Notes under the pieces: generated by a model
What the model saw: only the letters and a program-made list of their open reading frames with translations
What the model was told of the DNA's origin: nothing
Databases searched by the model: none
Source: a virus
Taxonomy: Duplodnaviria; Caudoviricetes
IMG/VR virus record: IMGVR_UViG_3300010365_001248
Span: 64,001-128,000 of that record
Length of the DNA: 64,000 bases
Strand: one strand, 5' to 3'
Position numbers and translations under genes: made by a program
In this document: positions 618 through 8,501 of the stretch, piece after piece
How the letters are laid out: each line of letters begins with the position of its first letter
Numbering within the stretch: the stretch's first letter is position 1

Positions 618-1559
618 ATGTTTTTTACTACAAATAATTTTAATAAAGTTTATACAACTTATAGTTCAAGTTGGGCTGCAAATGGAATAACAACTGGAAA
701 ATATATTTATGTTAATAAATGTGATTATGATATATTTTTAAAAAATCTTGTAAAACCGAAAGTTTCTTTAGATCCAGATAAAGATATTTTATGGATACAC
801 CCTTCTTGTGTATTACCTAGAACACAAGTTAGGACTAAATATAAAATTGCTTTAAAAAAAGAAAAAGCCACTGTTTTAGTTTATCCTGATGTAGCTGGAG
901 AATTATCTAGAAGATATACTAATGAATTTCAAACCTATATTAAAGATGATATATGCTGTTTGCTATATAGATCTTATGATAGGGATTTTGTTTTATTACC
1001 TGGTAATGAAAAATTATTAAAATCTGAATGTATTATTAGTAAACCTTTTAGATATTATGAATGTTGTCAAGAATTTGGTGAATTATGTCAGGATTTTTAT
1101 CAAAATGCTTCTTCAAAAAATTGGGTAAATGAAAGTGAAATTATAGATACTTTGGATTTACCTCCAATTTTACCTCAACATGTAGAGACTATAGTAAGTT
1201 TATTAAAATCTGATTCTAAACAATTAGCTTGGAAAATGTTATCAGAATTAAATTACAAAAGAGCTAGGAATTTTGTTAATCTTTTAATTCGTGATTTTGG
1301 TATAAATCGAATTAAAAAGAATGTATCTATTCAAGCTTTATTAGATTGTTGCCAGTCTTATAATTTAGAGGAATCTTCAGCTGAAGAAATTGACCTTATT
1401 TATCTTTACAAAAAAGAAAAACTTAAAAATGATTTTGAAGCTCATATAAATCGAATTAAAAATGAATTACATATTGATTTTAAATCTGAAATTAAATTAA
1501 CTTTTAATGCCTTAAATACAACTACTTCAATTATACTAGAAAATGAAAGCACAAATTAA
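618..1559 (+). CDS. Hypothetical phage protein (313 aa)
   Basis: Long uninterrupted ORF overlapping the thyX start; no motif recognised. Confidence 0.75.
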   Translation: MFFTTNNFNKVYTTYSSSWAANGITTGKYIYVNKCDYDIFLKNLVKPKVSLDPDKDILWIHPSCVLPRTQVRTKYKIALKKEKATVLVYPDVAGELSRRYTNEFQTYIKDDICCLLYRSYDRDFVLLPGNEKLLKSECIISKPFRYYECCQEFGELCQDFYQNASSKNWVNESEIIDTLDLPPILPQHVETIVSLLKSDSKQLAWKMLSELNYKRARNFVNLLIRDFGINRIKKNVSIQALLDCCQSYNLEESSAEEIDLIYLYKKEKLKNDFEAHINRIKNELHIDFKSEIKLTFNALNTTTSIILENESTN

Positions 1560-2328
1560 TGTTAAAGAATATAATAATGATTTTGGTTCTTTAGTAGCCA
1601 TTAAAAAATTTATTGAATTTTGTGGAAGACTTTGCTATAATAGTAGAGATAAAATAACTCCTAGTTCTTATGATACTTTTTATGATATGCTACTAAAAAG
1701 AGGTCATTTATCTCCACTAGCTCATGGCACAGTGTACTTAACTGTTTCTAATGATTCTAAATGGTTAGCTCAATATGATGAGTATATTCCAAAAGGAATT
1801 TGGAAAAGAAATCCTTGGATTCGAGTAAATCAAGACGCAGATCATCTATTTATAACTACAAATATGCGTTTTATTGAAACTTATAAATTACAAGATTGGC
1901 TACAATATATATCTAATCCTTGCTATATGCACACTTATAGATATACTTTTGAAATAGAAGCTCCTATATCTTGTACTAGAGAATTAAATAGACACGCTTA
2001 TTTACTTAATGGAATCTGTGAAAAATCTACTAGATATATTGATATGAGTGGTGATACTCCATATATTATTACAAAACCTGAAATTATGAAATATATGGAA
2101 ATGGCAACAACGTTTTATGATTTGGCTTTACTTGGTGGAGCTCAAAAACAAGAAGCCCGTGAAGTATTACCTTTAGGAACTATGTCTACGGCTATTTATA
2201 CAGCTTTTGAAGATGATTGGGAAGAAATTCTATCTAAAAGATCTTCTGATGCTGGTGCTCATGGACAACATCCAATGATTAATGAAGTTGCTAATTTAAT
2301 ATATAATTCTATAAAAGATAGAAAATAA
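1543..2328 (+). CDS. thyX: Flavin-dependent thymidylate synthase
   Basis: GRLCYNS, RGHLSPLAH, RELNRH...EKSTRY and AREVLPLGT motifs characteristic of ThyX. Confidence 0.88.
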   Translation: MKAQINVKEYNNDFGSLVAIKKFIEFCGRLCYNSRDKITPSSYDTFYDMLLKRGHLSPLAHGTVYLTVSNDSKWLAQYDEYIPKGIWKRNPWIRVNQDADHLFITTNMRFIETYKLQDWLQYISNPCYMHTYRYTFEIEAPISCTRELNRHAYLLNGICEKSTRYIDMSGDTPYIITKPEIMKYMEMATTFYDLALLGGAQKQEAREVLPLGTMSTAIYTAFEDDWEEILSKRSSDAGAHGQHPMINEVANLIYNSIKDRK

Positions 2329-3150: not shown

Positions 3151-3353
3151 TGTTTAAAAAAGGAGATTCCGCTATAATTTTTTATAAAGATTTAAAATTA
3201 GATATAACTATTAAATCGGTTAAAAAAGATACTTATATTATTTCTTTTAAAGATTATAGAAATTTAAAAAAGAAACTTGGAATAGGATTTATTCCTATTA
3301 CTAATGAAAAATTAGTAACTAAAAATTTATTACATTGGATATTAACGATATAG
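3150..3353 (+). CDS. Small hypothetical protein
   Basis: 67-aa ORF, TAATG coupling. Confidence 0.6.
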   Translation: MFKKGDSAIIFYKDLKLDITIKSVKKDTYIISFKDYRNLKKKLGIGFIPITNEKLVTKNLLHWILTI

Positions 3354-3547
3354 TAACTCTAGAAGAGTTAAAAAAAGAATTTAATAAACCTAATGTTATA
3401 GGTTCAGTTTTTGATACTAAAGATAATATCTGTTATGATCTAAAAGAAAATGTAACTTCTTCTAAAAAATTTTATTTAAGAAAAGTAGAAACTGCATTAA
3501 TTGTAGATACCTGGCTATATAATATTTTTATTGAACCTGTAGAATAA
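3335..3547 (+). CDS. Small hypothetical protein
   Basis: 70-aa ORF overlapping its neighbours in a tight operon. Confidence 0.6.
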   Translation: MDINDIVTLEELKKEFNKPNVIGSVFDTKDNICYDLKENVTSSKKFYLRKVETALIVDTWLYNIFIEPVE

Positions 3548-3708
3548 TGGATAAATGTCCTTTACAACAAACTTGTTTAATTCAATTAGTTCAAAAAGAA
3601 CACATTAGAAAATTAAATGAGAAATTAAAAGATATGCAAGCTCATATTGAACATTTAAATTTGACGCTTGATTATTTAATAACTAATTATAAAAATGATA
3701 AAAAATAA
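3547..3708 (+). CDS. Small coiled-coil hypothetical protein (53 aa; not in ORF track)
   Basis: TAATG coupling; MDKCPLQQTCLIQLVQKEHIRKLNEKLKDMQAHIEHLNLTLDYLITNYKNDKK*. Confidence 0.55.
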   Translation: MDKCPLQQTCLIQLVQKEHIRKLNEKLKDMQAHIEHLNLTLDYLITNYKNDKK

Positions 3709-5089
3709 AAATTTACATAAAGCTAAAAAAGAAAAAAATGATGAATTTTATACTCAACTGGCTGATATTGAAAGAGAATGTTATAAATATAAAGATCTTT
3801 TTCGGGATAAAGTTATTTACTGTAATTGTGATGATGCAAGGGAGAGTAATTTTTTCAGATACTTCTCTATGAATTTCGAGTTCTTTGGTTTGAAAAGACT
3901 TATTACAACTGGGTATAAAGCCAACGGACATGGAGTAGCTTTAATATATGAGGGAGATAAAAATGGAAATAGAGTTGTAGATGATGAGGAAATTCAGGTA
4001 GTCGAGTTAGAAGGTAATGGAGACTTTAGATCACCTGAGTGTATAGAGTTTTTAAAACAAGCTGATATCGTCGTTACCAACCCTCCCTTCTCCCTTTTCC
4101 GTGAATATGTGGGACTACTTATGGAATACAACAAGAAATTCCTAATTATAGGTAACTACAATGCTGTAACTTATAAAGAAATTTTTCCCCTTATAAAAAA
4201 CAATAAAATATGGTTAGGTATTCATTCAAATGTGACTATGGAATTTGCAATGCCTGATAGCTATCAAAAATATGATAGAATAGAAAATGGGGTAAAGATA
4301 GGTAAAGTTCCTTCAATTTGTTGGTTTACAAATTTACCTAACAAGAAACGAACTGAATCTTTGGATTTATATAAAAAGTATAATTCAAAAGAGTATCCGC
4401 AATACGACAATTACGACGCCATTAATGTAAACAAAGTGACTGACATTCCTATGGATTATGATGGTGTGATGGGTGTGCCTATCACTTTTCTGGACAAGTA
4501 TAATCCTAATCAATTTGAAATACTAAGTTCTAATGATTATCGAAAATCAGATTCTGTTCCATTCAAAGCACATGGACTTATAAAAGATAAAGATGGAGCG
4601 ATAAACGGCAAACCCACTTACGCCCGCATCCTCATTCGTCGCTTGATTATTTAATAACTAATTATAAAAATGATAAAAAATAAAAATTTACATAAAGCTA
4701 AAAAAGAAAAAAATGATGAGTTTTATACTCAACTAGCTGATATTGAAAGAGAATGTTATAAATATAAAGATCTTTTTAAAGATAAAATTATTTATTGTAA
4801 TTGCGATGATGCTAGAGAAAGTAATTTTTTTAAATACTTTTCAATGAATTTTGAATTTTTTGGATTGAAAAAACTCATTACAACTGGATATAAAGCTAAT
4901 GGACATGGAGTAGCTTTTATATATGAAGGAGATAAAAATGGGAATAAAGTTGTAGATGATGAAGAAATACAAGTAATTAATTTAGAAGGAGATGGAGATT
5001 TTAAATCCCCAGAATGTATAGAATTTCTAAAACAAGCGGATATTATTGTAACCAACCCACCCTTTAGCCTTTTCAGGGAGTATGTAGCC
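3665..5089 (+). repeat. Direct duplication of MTase upstream and 5' region (from 3665 and 4640, offset 975 bp)
   Basis: Both copies begin cgcttgattatttaataactaattataaaaATG and are identical for about 80 bp, then diverge mainly at synonymous sites. Confidence 0.9.
3695..4654 (+). CDS. Adenine-specific DNA methyltransferase, EcoRI family (copy 1, complete)
   Basis: KNDEFYT, IYCNCDD, GDFRSPEC, catalytic TNPPFSLFREY, CWFTNL, GVMGVPITFLDKYNP, YARILIRR. Confidence 0.9.
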   Translation: MIKNKNLHKAKKEKNDEFYTQLADIERECYKYKDLFRDKVIYCNCDDARESNFFRYFSMNFEFFGLKRLITTGYKANGHGVALIYEGDKNGNRVVDDEEIQVVELEGNGDFRSPECIEFLKQADIVVTNPPFSLFREYVGLLMEYNKKFLIIGNYNAVTYKEIFPLIKNNKIWLGIHSNVTMEFAMPDSYQKYDRIENGVKIGKVPSICWFTNLPNKKRTESLDLYKKYNSKEYPQYDNYDAINVNKVTDIPMDYDGVMGVPITFLDKYNPNQFEILSSNDYRKSDSVPFKAHGLIKDKDGAINGKPTYARILIRRLII

Positions 5090-5530
5090 TAGTTGATGAA
5101 ATATAATAAGAAATTTTTAATTATAGGATCTCAGAATGCTATTACATATAAAGAAATTTTTTCTTATATTAAAAATAATAAAATGTGGTTAGGAACTCAA
5201 TTAGTAAAAGAATTTATAACTCCATTAAAAACAATTACTGAAAAAACACAATATTGTAATGATCAAGGACAAATTATTCAAAAATTTGGAAATATTTGTT
5301 GGTTTACTAATTTACCTCATAATAAACGAAATGAAAGTATAGATTTATATAAAAAGTATAATAAAAATGATTATCCTACTTATGATAATTATGATGCAAT
5401 TGAAGTAAAAAAAGTTGCTGAAATTCCTATGGATTATGAAGTTGAAAGAATTGTAACAGAAGAGGAATTAAATAAACTTAATAAGTTAGGATTTACTATT
5501 GAAATACTTGAAGAATATGAAAACATATAA
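4670..5530 (+). CDS. EcoRI-family adenine methyltransferase copy 2, N-terminal subunit (one in-frame TAG at 5090-5092 read as Gln)
   Basis: ORFs 4670-5092 and 5093-5530 are contiguous and in frame. NPPFSLFREYVA(TAG)LMKY aligns with copy 1 NPPFSLFREYVGLLMEY. After IPMDY it ends in a novel tail and lacks the GVPITF C-terminus. Confidence 0.85.
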
Positions 5531-5726
5531 AATAAAAATTAAAAATCCTGCTATAGGAGTTCCTATTACATTTATGGACAAATATAACCCAGAACAATTT
5601 GAAATCATAGGAATGGGAGAAGATAATGGCATGGGACAATCAGGTGGAGTTTGGTTAGGAGGTTCAAAATCTTGTTTAGTGAATGGGAAAGCTGCATTTA
5701 AGCGTATTTTCATTCGTCATAAATAA
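5517..5726 (+). CDS. Stand-alone MTase C-terminal module A (69 aa)
   Basis: MKTYKIKIKNP-AIGVPITFMDKYNPEQFEII-variable-FKRIFIRHK*; homologous to the copy 1 C-terminus. Confidence 0.8.
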   Translation: MKTYKIKIKNPAIGVPITFMDKYNPEQFEIIGMGEDNGMGQSGGVWLGGSKSCLVNGKAAFKRIFIRHK

Positions 5727-5742
5727 CTAATAAAATATTATT

Positions 5743-5919
5743 ATGAAAACTTATAAAATAAAGATTAAAAATCCTGTGATGGGTGTGCCTATCACTTTTC
5801 TGGACAAGTATAATCCAGACCAGTTTGAGATCATTAGATTCAGAAAAGGGAATGATGATAAGGACTTGTCAATAAATGGTAAATGTCCATATTTCCGCAT
5901 CCTCATTCGTCGCAAATAA
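5743..5919 (+). CDS. Stand-alone MTase C-terminal module B (58 aa; not in ORF track)
   Basis: MKTYKIKIKNP-VMGVPITFLDKYNPDQFEII-RFRKGNDDKDLSINGKCP-YFRILIRRK*. Confidence 0.8.
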   Translation: MKTYKIKIKNPVMGVPITFLDKYNPDQFEIIRFRKGNDDKDLSINGKCPYFRILIRRK

Positions 5920-5936
5920 TTAATAAAAGCAGTAAT

Positions 5937-6416
5937 ATGAAAATAGAACTAGTAAAAACAAAGATATCAGAGTTATTTAGGGGTTACATAAATACTCAGG
6001 AAGATGGTGTAAAAGGTTATAACGGATTATTAAATATACGCCCACCATATCAGAGAGAATTTGTATATAAAGATAAGCAGAGAGATGCCGTAATAGAAAC
6101 AATAAATAAAGGCTTTCCACTTAATTCGATGTATTGGGTAAGAAATAGTGACGGAACGTTTGAATTACTCGATGGACAGCAAAGGACGTTATCTATTTGT
6201 TCTTACCTTAATGGAGAGTTCAGTATAGATGGAAAAGCTTGGCATAACTTATTTCCAGTAGAGCAGAATAAAATTAACGACTACGAATTAATGGTATATA
6301 TCTGTGAAGGAGATGAGGTAGAGAAGCTTGAATGGTTTAGAACAATTAATATCGCTGGAGAAAAGCTAACGGATCATCGAGAGAGTCATCAAGGAATATT
6401 TGGAGGCATAATCTAA
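5937..6416 (+). pseudogene. DUF262 (GmrSD/ParB-like) restriction-endonuclease gene, 3'-truncated
   Basis: IRPPYQREFVY, LLDGQQRT and WFRTINIAGEKLTD DUF262 motifs. The sequence switches to unrelated DNA at about 6376 and no C-terminal nuclease domain follows. Confidence 0.8.
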
Positions 6417-6435
6417 TATAAATATCCCGACGCGT

Positions 6436-7020
6436 ATGAAAATTGCACTGTTTTTCGGTTCATTCAATCCAGTCCATATCGGTCACGTCGCTTTGGCGAA
6501 TTATGTGGCTGAGTATGGAAATGTCGACAAGGTGATGATGATAGTGTCACCGTTGAATCCGTTGAAGGCAGGCAATACATTGCTTCCAAACGAAGTGAGA
6601 CTTAATATGCTTCGTAAGGCGGTGGAAGGGTACAGCAAGATTGAGGTTTCAGATGTTGAGTTTGGACTTCCAATTCCGTCGTACACATACGACACTTTGG
6701 AATATTTGAGACGAGAGCATCCTGAGCACGAATATATACTGCTGATGGGAGCCGACAATGTGGAGGTTTTCTCAAAGTGGCGTAACTATGATAAGATTCT
6801 TGAAAAGTATCACGTCATGGTATATCCACGTCGAGGATACACGGATGAACTGCCATATAATAATATGAGTAGAATCGAAACACCGATTATAGAAGTGTCG
6901 TCGACATTCATCAGAGAATCGGTGGAGAAGGGCAGAGACGTGAGGTTCTTTCTGCCTGGAGGCATCTACGACGATGTATGCAGAGAAGTAAGAAAAATGA
7001 AAAAAATTACAATAAAATGA
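6436..7020 (+). CDS. nadD: Nicotinate/nicotinamide mononucleotide adenylyltransferase
   Basis: FFGSFNPVHIGH (HxGH), SYTYDTL, LLMGADN, W116-like KWRNY, EVSSTFIR; full length; visibly more GC-rich than the phage backbone. Confidence 0.92.
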   Translation: MKIALFFGSFNPVHIGHVALANYVAEYGNVDKVMMIVSPLNPLKAGNTLLPNEVRLNMLRKAVEGYSKIEVSDVEFGLPIPSYTYDTLEYLRREHPEHEYILLMGADNVEVFSKWRNYDKILEKYHVMVYPRRGYTDELPYNNMSRIETPIIEVSSTFIRESVEKGRDVRFFLPGGIYDDVCREVRKMKKITIK

Positions 7021-7226
7021 AAGATAGAATTAGTGAACTTCTTGAAGAGGTTTCCAAGCTTTCAGCGGAGAATGCAGAGCAGTTGGAGGCACTTAGAATC
7101 AAGTATTTGAGCAAGAAAGGAGAGATTTCTTCGCTGTTCAATGATTTCAAGAATCAACAATTCCGCAATTTTCTATCTCCAACATCCGGGTTATGCGAGA
7201 ATCTAGAAGATTTAGTTGTGTTTTAA
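7017..7226 (+). pseudogene. pheS: Phenylalanyl-tRNA synthetase alpha subunit, N-terminal fragment (~46 codons) fused to unrelated sequence
   Basis: MKDRISELLEEVSKLSAENAEQLEALRIKYLSKKGEISSLFNDFKN matches the PheS N-terminal coiled coil (LExLRxxYLxKKG). Similarity stops at about 7154. ATGA-coupled to nadD. Confidence 0.75.
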
Positions 7227-7265
7227 TTAGAGTTTTAATTAGAGAATCTAGATCTAGATATCCCT

Positions 7266-7568
7266 ATCTATCCTAATCCTGCAACTGATGTTATCACTGT
7301 AACTAACGAGGGTGTTAACAGCGTGGCTGTTTACTCTGTAGCTGGTTCTTTGGTTGCTTCTTCTGAGTCTAACGTAGTTAGCGTAGCAAACTTGGTTAAG
7401 GGTATCTACGTTGTTGCGGCTAACACAGAGGCAGGTGTAATCACAGGTCAGATCATCAATAGAGGCTTTAATAAAACTATAGAAGAGTTGCAGAAAGAAC
7501 GAGCTCGGTTAATTGAGGAGCTTGATAAAATTGACGAAAATGGATGTATGGATACTATACTCAGATAA
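7266..7568 (+). pseudogene. T9SS (Por) type A C-terminal sorting domain fragment fused to a coiled-coil tail
   Basis: In-frame IYPNPATDVITV...VAVYSVAGSLV...LVKGIYVV matches the YPNP / YxxxG / LxxGxYxV signature. In-frame TAA at 7236 upstream and no ATG. Confidence 0.7.
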
Positions 7569-7646
7569 CATTACTAGGGATAGAATAGAGAAATTACAAC
7601 AAGATGAATTATAACTCAGGATTATTTATTTAAAAACTGAAAAACT

Positions 7647-7805
7647 ATGATAGTATTACTTTTAGCGATGTTTTTTGCAATTTGTTGTGGAATAGTTGCA
7701 AATAATAAAAATAGAAGCGTAGGTCTTGCTATATTTTGTGGATTTTTCTTTGGAATTTTTGCTTTGATAATTTATTTGCTGTTAGGAAAAAAAGAAAAAG
7801 AATAA
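7647..7805 (+). CDS. Small two-TM membrane protein (52 aa; not in ORF track)
   Basis: MIVLLLAMFFAICCGIVANNKNRSVGLAIFCGFFFGIFALIIYLLLGKKEKE*. Confidence 0.65.
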   Translation: MIVLLLAMFFAICCGIVANNKNRSVGLAIFCGFFFGIFALIIYLLLGKKEKE

Positions 7806-7982
7806 TGAAAAAAATTATTAAATTAATTATATTAATTTTATAATCATTCTAATAATTCTTCTTATGATTGCCCTTATAATTCATGAATATATTTAATAAT
7901 GATATTTGTCTTTTTAATAACAATTGCTCTGGGTATTCATATAATTAATTTATATTATAATATAATAAAGAAAAGAAATAAA

Positions 7983-8501
7983 ATGATAACTTTTGATAAT
8001 GTCATCACTAATTATAACTATGCTCTCGATACTCTTGATAAATATGATTATCAAAAGTTGATTGTAGAGCAAACTACAAATGAGGAACGTTTTCATGCGA
8101 CTTACGAAAATGCTATAGATGCCATAACTTGTATGAAAAACAAATTTGGCGGCAGTTCGCTGTTCGGTAATGAGAAAGATGATTCTTTCAAAAGTTCTAT
8201 CGGACAAATCTACCAGACATTTGGAGGTGTTGATCTCTATCCGTCTGTGGAAGAAAAAGCGGCTATGTTGCTATATCTTGTCACTAAAAACCATTCTTTC
8301 AGCGATGGAAACAAACGGATTGCTGCTGCGTTGTTTCTTTGGTTTATGAACAACAATGGTATTTTGTACGACGAGAATGGAGGCAAACGTATAGCGGACA
8401 ACACTTTGGTGGCTTTGACTTTAATGATTGCTGAGAGTCGTCCTGAAGAAAAAGATATTATAATAAAAGTAATTGTTAATTTAATAAATAAAAACAATTA
8501 A
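7983..8501 (+). CDS. Fic/Doc family protein (alternative start 7899)
   Basis: LYPSVEEKAAMLLYLVTKNHSFSDGNKRIAA contains the Doc-type Fic motif HxFxDGNKR. Confidence 0.85.
   Translation: MITFDNVITNYNYALDTLDKYDYQKLIVEQTTNEERFHATYENAIDAITCMKNKFGGSSLFGNEKDDSFKSSIGQIYQTFGGVDLYPSVEEKAAMLLYLVTKNHSFSDGNKRIAAALFLWFMNNNGILYDENGGKRIADNTLVALTLMIAESRPEEKDIIIKVIVNLINKNN

Follow-up and report, generated by a model that had tools for sequence, protein, structure and literature searches.

A candidate genes-in-pieces EcoRI-family DNA methylase with alternative C-terminal modules in a TAG-recoding phage

Introduction

The locus described here lies on a viral contig of 163.9 kb (IMG/VR record IMGVR_UViG_3300010365_001248; 27% GC). 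The stretch that was analysed, called the window below, comprises the 64,000 nucleotides (nt) at bases 64001-128000 of that contig, and positions refer to the window unless stated otherwise. Near its beginning, the window carries two neighbouring copies of a gene for an N6-adenine DNA methylase of the EcoRI family (PF13651). Copy 1 is complete. Copy 2, termed the N-subunit, stops before the C-terminal part of the fold, and two small genes that follow it, modules A and B, each encode a version of the missing part. An earlier reading made from the DNA letters and their translations (the sequence-only reading) had proposed that the two modules are interchangeable and dock to the N-subunit through a shared leader peptide. 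The anatomy of the locus, its recurrence in relatives, the predicted structures and the competing explanations are considered here. Related loci and proteins are designated by L and P numbers.

Anatomy of the methylase locus

3695 to 4654, plus strand: copy 1, a complete, unsplit EcoRI-family N6-adenine DNA methylase of 319 amino acids (aa), PF13651
4634 to 4669, plus strand: duplication junction, where the 36 nt in front of copy 1 (3659-3694) recur, joined to the end of copy 1
4670 to 5530, plus strand: N-subunit, 286 aa with TAG read as Gln, with a catalytic core containing NPPF, variable region 1 and the putative docking tail
5090 to 5092, plus strand: in-frame TAG within the N-subunit, aligned with the conserved Q of VAQLM in relatives
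5438 to 5527, plus strand: acidic putative docking tail of 30 residues (EVERIV, a helix, then FTIEILEE...), directly after IPMDY
5517 to 5726, plus strand: module A, 69 aa, with leader MKTYKIKIKNP, core GVPITF..QFEII, variable segment GMGEDNGMGQSGG... and final strand KRIFIRHK
5743 to 5919, plus strand: module B, 58 aa, with the same leader and core, variable segment RFRKGNDDKDLSINGKCPYF and final strand RILIRRK

Copy 1 aligns with positions 1-344 of the 345 in the PF13651 profile (E value 2.9e-127, 425 bits) and is uninterrupted through ...IPMDYDGVMGVPITF.... The N-subunit matches positions 1-292 only (E 1.3e-102, 344 bits). It is without the C-terminal strands of the fold and ends in ...IPMDYEVERIVTEEELNKLNKLGFTIEILEEYENI, followed by the stop codon. 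The NPPF motif of the family (residues 129-132) is invariant. Both modules match positions 279-345 (module A, E 4e-11 and 43 bits; module B, E 5e-13 and 49.5 bits), and all four products exceed the gathering score of the family, 26.4 bits. The tail is absent from unsplit PF13651 members, copy 1 among them. The start of module A overlaps the stop of the N-subunit by 14 nt in the +1 frame. The codons of the two leaders differ only at aca/act and aaa/aag, both synonymous. The positions and peptides of both copies and both modules had been described correctly in the sequence-only reading, as had the leaders, identical as peptides and synonymously different as DNA.

The N-subunit contains one in-frame TAG. 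The minus-strand late genes of this phage are long, full of in-frame TAG codons and open only when TAG is read as a residue; the methylase locus lies within a plus-strand block of small genes that is otherwise without in-frame TAG. A tRNA with the anticodon CTA (a TAG suppressor) is encoded outside the window, at C1:157152-157241 of the genome. Seven further tRNA genes are clustered in the genome (C1:10781-12334), and the window itself is free of tRNA genes. Because the TAG column corresponds to a conserved Gln in relatives, translation of TAG at 5090-5092 as Gln fits the alignment, as the sequence-only reading had supposed. Proteomics has confirmed the use of TAG for Gln in crAss-like phages (PMC9523058). 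Since the N-subunit needs this reading, the split enzyme would appear only after the suppressor tRNA of the phage has become active; for recoded phages, such suppression-dependent timing has been put forward (bioRxiv 10.1101/2021.08.26.457843).

Recurrence of the split and selection on its parts

At the IMG/VR loci that were compared (L005-L084), the N- and C-terminal parts lie in one frame, with a full-length open reading frame (ORF) in 78 of 80. At the protein level, the N-subunit of the window shares 93% identity with P0007 of contig L085, and its DNA is 92% identical to the L085 counterpart. Leader-led modules were found in related contigs as follows:

L085 and L086: an N-subunit and four leader-led modules each
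L088: two leader-led modules
L090: one leader-led module
L103: five leader-led modules

All modules of these contigs are intact leader-led ORFs, and their number and order vary between related arrays. The frame arrangement is shared by five independent assemblies (ENA, Logan and JGI), as is the overlap that places the ATG of a module within the tail, which is kept in five loci. L091, L093 and L095 have diverged versions whose tails and leaders are of other kinds; among these, ...IDIEIDEEDYPKWKAAYGDDVEILEN is found with MKIRVHRPIY, and ...EIEVVLTEKEFADLQKTDYEWELVETIYE with MKYKVKIKNPIF.

A search with a profile of leader-led modules returned 2969 representatives at E <= 1e-3, and 34 of the best 144 are short stand-alone proteins that bear the leader. 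When the tail alone was used, eight other proteins of 228-296 aa were found to end with the same tail. The split form with this tail was found in 8 or more protein clusters, and at least 34 clusters at 50% identity contain leader-led modules. The leader DNA pattern matched one other IMG/VR contig and five JGI contigs; most examples came from protein searches of ENA and Logan. Leader-led ORFs number one to five per contig.

Selection was assessed from nonsynonymous (pN) and synonymous (pS) differences. For the leader, the figures were taken from loci found through the tail, which avoids ascertainment by the leader pattern. The leader has a pS of 0.45 and a pN of 0.02 (pN/pS 0.05), so the peptide is kept despite many synonymous changes. 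Leaders inside the L085 array also differ synonymously from one another (acc/act, atc/gtt and aac/aat). Such conservation, and the recurrence of the layout in other phage contigs, agree with the earlier claim that the split is not a chance frameshift. The tail, measured in loci found via the leader or a module, has a pN/pS of about 0.3 and is 80-88% identical among N-subunits whose bodies are far more diverged. Both elements are under purifying selection by these figures. Its pS is lower than that of the gene body, which suggests that the tail-leader unit moves between methylase genes. The body of the N-subunit has a pN/pS of 0.03/0.27 against L085.

Predicted docking and fold

Docking was modelled with the orthologous pair of L085, that is, P0007 and the first module of the array (97% identical to module A). 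The complex scored 0.79, and the best of three controls scored 0.00. The score mark is reached by 58 of 80 solved complexes and by 2 of 110 mismatched pairs, counts that are approximate because own alignments were used. The complex runs share at least 96% of contacts, and the partner has a predicted local distance difference test score (pLDDT) of at least 84. In the model, tail strands 257-262 and 275-281 enclose leader residues 4-9. For the two halves of a single fold, such a pass is partly expected, and it is the predicted tail-leader contacts that are informative. No solved structure matched copy 1 in a sequence search, and a Foldseek search against the PDB gave weak Rossmann-core matches only. 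As no solved structure of the family was found by sequence, it is unlikely that the score merely reflects a known structure. The modelling that the sequence-only reading had envisaged for each module has a positive outcome for the module A type, in the L085 orthologues.

Tail and leader also occur together within a single chain, in P0203, P0226 and P0267. The AlphaFold2 prediction for P0226 shows the insert (residues 243-278) as strand-helix-strand-strand (E-H-E-E) with a pLDDT of 91-95. Together with the complex model, this predicted fold indicates that tail and leader are two parts of one small inserted domain, cut in its last loop. A domain formed by a strand-helix-strand tail and a leader strand had been predicted from the sequence, and both models reproduce it.

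The AlphaFold2 model of copy 1 (pLDDT 88.5) places C-terminal strands at residues 258-262, 274-279 and 311-316, which flank a low-confidence variable stretch. Model residues 18-280 align to the catalytic domain of M.TaqI (residues 21-243; Z 8.6, root mean square deviation 3.4, 164 aligned), and the model also aligns to MmeI, EcoKI M and CamA; all these Z values are middling. A gamma-class N6-adenine methylase fold is supported rather than proven by these comparisons of predicted structure, and the NPPF motif agrees with the NPPF/Y motif that this class has after its cofactor-binding region.

Variable segments and predicted specificity

The M.TaqI alignment ends at model residue 280, so that the variable segment starts where the target-recognition domain of TaqI starts. 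The length of this segment varies among homologues from about 10 to 80 residues, and its sequence is highly divergent, yet discrete types are conserved across phyla. The type carried by module B is 80-96% identical across many bacterial phyla. Residues 10-58 of module B are 80% identical to residues 274-322 of M.EcoRI, and that methylase adjoins a 'type-2 restriction enzyme EcoRI' on an E. coli plasmid. At L162, an EcoRI endonuclease (PF02963, E 3.8e-140) lies beside a methylase with a module B-type segment. The M.EcoRI-type segment is combined with at least four different types of region 1, and it tracks with R.EcoRI neighbours. Since module B has an M.EcoRI-type segment and such segments have R.EcoRI neighbours, methylation of GAATTC is predicted, and this is most likely the specificity that module B gives. 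The TaqI alignment and the M.EcoRI type of module B together suggest that each module confers a different specificity. The phage genome contains 58 GAATTC sites against 74.8 expected; the site is not depleted, which is weak evidence in either direction. A recent copying of module B from a host operon is unsupported, as its best DNA matches are other phage arrays (97%) and bacterial genes reach only about 85%.

Other family members vary their C-terminal segments in other ways. In the unsplit members at L008:4829-5036, L082:4956-5390 and L006:4864-5106, a second variable segment lies tail-to-tail on the opposite strand, bracketed by perfect or near-perfect inverted repeats of 17-21 nt at the QFEI codons (with two partner repeats in L082). 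These second segments resemble invertible C-terminal cassettes. In P0133 (688 aa), P0140, P0275, P0134 and L072:3627-5021, two to four C-terminal modules lie in one frame, with linkers between them. The fused proteins are possible multispecific forms acting in cis, and some may be arrays that were read through by gene callers.

Homing endonucleases, duplication and recombination

Several relatives carry endonuclease genes, or parts of them, at the split or between modules. L093 and L097 have a NUMOD4/HNH_3 homing endonuclease gene precisely at the boundary of tail and leader, L091 has a GIY-YIG gene that separates two modules, and in L101 and L104 an N-terminal remnant of an endonuclease gene is fused to the leader. 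No endonuclease gene is present at the split of the window, where the N-subunit and module A overlap.

The window carries a tandem repeat of 975 nt (direct repeat D1, 3659-3958 against 4634-4933, 91% identical, spacing 975), the junction of which altered the ending of copy 1 to ...ILIRRLII before the stop codon. Copy 1 is itself a mosaic. Over nt 9-491 it shares 93% identity with the L103 N-subunit, and over nt 771-946 it shares 98.9% identity with L103 module 1; the final 176 nt or so constitute an 'SSNDYRKSD...' module that is a free-standing, leader-led gene in L103 and L090. From these alignments, copy 1 is taken to be a re-fused recombinant with a third module type, joined at the GTGATGGGTGTGCC core, without tail or leader. 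The DNA of module A is 96.7% identical to L103 module 2 and 91.5% identical to L085 module 1, and that of module B is 97.2% identical to L103 module 4. The window locus as a whole is, by the same kind of comparison, a recombinant whose modules resemble those of L103, whose N-subunit resembles that of L085 and whose copy 1 is an L103-like mosaic. Leader and core together form direct repeats of 57-113 nt. The endonucleases at the split in relatives and the re-fused nature of copy 1, like the precedent in phage Aeh1 discussed below, go beyond the sequence-only reading.

An orphan leader (MKTYKIKIKNPI, then a stop) lies directly before the start of the N-subunit in L103 (reverse strand, 1165-1200) and in L102:1200-1234. 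This suggests past recombination of a leader with the next methylase gene.

Proposed mechanism and alternative explanations

The locus is proposed, with a probability of roughly 0.6, to encode a genes-in-pieces N6-adenine methylase of the EcoRI family (PF13651, gamma-class), in which one N-subunit is served by alternative modules with distinct specificities. This proposal builds on observed or computed features (anatomy, conservation, selection signatures and structure predictions) and infers from them translation, binding, activity and distinct specificities. The N-subunit would supply the cofactor and catalytic core, and the last strands of the fold would come from a module. Each module would be translated separately and would contribute the conserved element GVPITF..QFEII, a hypervariable segment located where gamma-class enzymes have the target-recognition domain, and a final RILIR strand. 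Assembly would proceed through the split small domain, formed by the acidic strand-helix-strand tail and the basic KxKIKIK strand at the start of the module. One catalytic subunit could then pair with either module to give different sequence specificities in the same cell. The split enzyme and the unsplit copy 1, with its third module type, would together protect phage DNA against several host restriction enzymes. Judging from the relatives, the arrangement may have originated from homing endonucleases at the split and between modules, and recombination at the conserved leader and core may shuttle modules between arrays and between split and fused genes.

A broader form of this proposal falls a little short of even odds. 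The locus would represent a plug-in specificity system for a Type II methylase, with a universal acidic socket and a growable, shuffling array of 58-74-aa modules that share a basic plug, carry different recognition loops and are spread by homing endonucleases. Several motifs, GAATTC included, would be methylated in each infection with no DNA rearrangement. The sequence-only reading had spoken of specificity switching at the protein level. The conserved split, the leader and the predicted docking are supported by all computational tests that were applied; what is proposed here is simultaneous multi-specificity rather than switching, and the distinct specificities are predicted from the variable segments.

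Several observations weigh against the split-enzyme proposal. Copy 1 is already a complete enzyme, so some methylation is possible without the split copy. Module A alone is translationally coupled to the N-subunit, and module B is not. A second variable region (residues 176-205 or so) lies within the N-subunit and may also set specificity; a module swap might then alter only part of the target site, or nothing. Arrays have decayed in some relatives: the fifth module of L103 is without its final strand, and the L088 N-subunit (4883-5687) is broken near its 5' end into ORFs of 55 aa and 228 aa. The complex model covers the L085 orthologues and the module A type only. Conservation of the leader DNA could also serve recombination.

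Some of these observations could be accounted for if the downstream modules were spare parts. Only the first, coupled module would then work, and the others would form a reservoir from which sequences are recombined into the first position or into fused genes, generating diversity in DNA at the level of the population. The overlap of the N-subunit stop by module A alone would be explained, as would the varying order and number of modules between related arrays, the direct repeats formed by leader and core, and the presence in copy 1, at 98.9% nt identity, of a module that is free-standing in L103 and L090. However, an ATG start, an uninterrupted frame and the leader peptide are preserved in all array members, and silent cassettes would need neither a start codon nor a docking leader. 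The synonymous differences among the leaders of the L085 array moreover weaken DNA homology and keep the peptide. This explanation is considered unlikely. It is more doubtful still that 4670-5919 consists of pseudogene pieces, with endonuclease traffic and recombination having broken the second copy and left copy 1 as the only functional gene. The in-frame TAG of copy 2 beside a complete copy 1 would suit such decay, and so would the truncation of the GmrSD_N gene that follows module B and the broken L088 N-subunit and L103 fifth module. Yet the TAG stands at a conserved Gln in a TAG-recoding phage that encodes tRNA-CTA, and the N-subunit retains a strong PF13651 match, 93% identity to P0007 and a body under selection. 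The recurrence of the split form with its tail, and of leader-led modules, across the clusters counted above also speaks against debris.

The modules might instead alter a property other than specificity (stability, processivity, strand preference or coupling to the GmrSD_N-HNH protein), with recognition set by variable region 1. The presence of a second variable region in the N-subunit is compatible with this, and the conservation of the methylase and GmrSD_N-HNH pair in phages and bacteria suggests a joint function. But the M.EcoRI-type segment occurs with at least four types of region 1 and follows R.EcoRI neighbours, the segment lies at the position of the gamma-class recognition domain, and arrays persist where the nuclease is truncated (the window and L088); the probability given to this alternative is as low as that given to decay. 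Least credible is that 4670-5726 encodes one polypeptide, through an error of sequencing or assembly or through programmed frameshifting. Single-chain relatives with tail and leader in one frame make it conceivable, as does the +1 position of module A with its 14-nt overlap. But the frame layout and the ATG-in-tail overlap are identical in five independent assemblies, modules beyond the first could not be fused in this way, and a whole endonuclease gene separates the parts in L093 and L097. There was also no Rfam match at the junction and no unusual RNA fold (z -1.4). A programmed frameshift or a sequencing error was rejected as the source of the split on the strength of conservation and of the endonuclease-interrupted relatives.

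Other candidates for the split were considered and rejected. A split intein does not fit: the tail starts with Glu after IPMDY and the leader ends with NP before Val or Ala, whereas an intein would begin with Cys or Ser and end with Asn ahead of Cys, Ser or Thr. Tail and leader total 41 aa, against about 130 aa for a Hint fold, and have no Pfam match besides PF13651. For a self-splicing intron, no relevant Rfam match at E <= 1 was found in 3300-6600, the z score of the junction fold is the one given above, and the 112-nt gap at the split is under protein-level selection, which also counts against an intron. The modules are not Type I HsdS subunits, as they match PF13651 alone at E <= 0.1, with no Methylase_S domains.

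Relation to known systems and significance

The closest likeness to the split is found in the ribonucleotide reductase of phage Aeh1. There, mobE, a homing endonuclease gene, divides the reductase gene into nrdA-a and nrdA-b (Crona et al. 2010, PMC3045599). The tails newly present at the C and N termini of the Aeh1 proteins are missing from the continuous protein and serve as interaction domains, so that tail-mediated assembly of a split gene product is a known principle (PMC3045599). In both systems, a gene that relatives carry in one piece is divided, at a homing-endonuclease site, into two genes that are translated separately (as predicted for the methylase). Added tails are likewise present and conserved at the methylase locus, where they are predicted to pair. 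The present case concerns a DNA methylase, the endonuclease gene is no longer present in the window, and single-chain relatives have the methylase tail and leader as a folded insert as well. The main difference is that the methylase has a choice of C-terminal pieces, all with the same docking leader. Arrays in which alternative methylase modules carry such a common leader were not found described in the searchable literature.

Among restriction-modification systems, Type I HsdM pairs with interchangeable, separate HsdS subunits. Extra plasmid-borne hsdS genes are found in Lactococcus, and more than one per cell is possible. HsdS proteins are about 400 aa long, with two recognition domains and coiled coils. 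The methylase locus shares with Type I systems a single catalytic methylase subunit and interchangeable, separately encoded specificity subunits; its modules differ from HsdS in being 58-74 aa long, in completing the catalytic fold itself and in matching PF13651 only. The Bacillus phages SPR, phi3T and rho11s encode multispecific cytosine-C5 methylases with target-recognising elements in tandem in one polypeptide. Their anti-restriction strategy, in which one catalytic core serves several recognition elements, resembles the one proposed here, whereas they are C5 enzymes with their elements in cis and the present locus belongs to an N6-adenine family with its elements on separate small proteins. 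Fused multi-module PF13651 relatives also exist (P0133, P0140 and P0275), unlike the separate modules of the window. M.EcoRI (326 aa, GAATTC), the founding member of PF13651, is 80% identical to module B over core and variable segment; it is one chain without tail or leader, beside R.EcoRI, and its counterpart here is a free-standing phage gene of 58 aa. Exchange of a methylase recognition element is also achieved by the invertible cassettes of phase-variable Type I hsdS genes, and the PF13651 members L006, L008 and L082 appear to invert in a similar manner. In contrast, the modules of the window are complete genes, all in direct orientation, and would need no DNA rearrangement.

If the split-enzyme proposal is correct, phages would have a new route to wider protection against restriction, with several tiny recognition subunits serving one catalytic subunit. 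Such a route would parallel, at the level of proteins, the multispecific methylases of Bacillus phages and the invertible specificity genes. It predicts that the N-subunit together with module B methylates GAATTC. It would also explain at least dozens of clusters of leader-led genes of 55-100 aa in gut and rumen metagenomes. Tools for methylation motifs that assume one motif per gene would misread loci of this kind. The proposal links the traffic of homing endonucleases with the gain of a useful function, and the tail-leader pair would constitute a small, natural and portable docking tag for the engineering of split proteins.

Phage placement and neighbouring genes

The sequence-only reading had assumed a member of the Crassvirales. 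Six large late proteins gave zero PHROG matches at E <= 1e-5, and a search of a phage collection returned no close record, the best methylase matches being at most 52% identical. In the window (1540-2325) as in L085 (2862-3647), the methylase locus has a Thy1 (ThyX) gene upstream of it, so that the two phages share local gene order. Counts of promoters and terminators were not above shuffled expectation, and both of the 'terminators' that were called correspond to the repeated GVPITF coding sequence. Genome-wide, strong depletion is seen for several 6-bp palindromes (observed against expected: GGTACC, 1 and 9.0; GCTAGC, 1 and 6.1; GATATC, 12 and 43.8; GGATCC, 7 and 20.1; ATCGAT, 2 and 7.8).

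The module array is followed by a nuclease-related gene:

5937 to 6416, plus strand: truncated GmrSD_N (DUF262) gene, PF03235, E 3.4e-20

This gene has 95.5% nt identity to L088 over 440 nt only, and the homology ends near 6376. Full-length GmrSD_N+HNH genes follow the module arrays of L085, L086, L095, L097, L104 and L107, and the L088 gene is without the HNH part. The EcoRI-family methylase and GmrSD_N+HNH form a conserved pair in phages and bacteria (L085, L086, L091, L095, L097, L104, L107 and L117). At other bacterial loci, the same type of methylase is paired with a true EcoRI endonuclease instead. Beyond about 6376, the DNA (6376-8500) has a GC content of 40% and encodes a cytidylyltransferase-like (NMN adenylyltransferase-like) protein, a Fic/DOC protein and an 82-aa fragment of a PheRS N-terminal domain. 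This stretch looks like a captured piece of cellular DNA.

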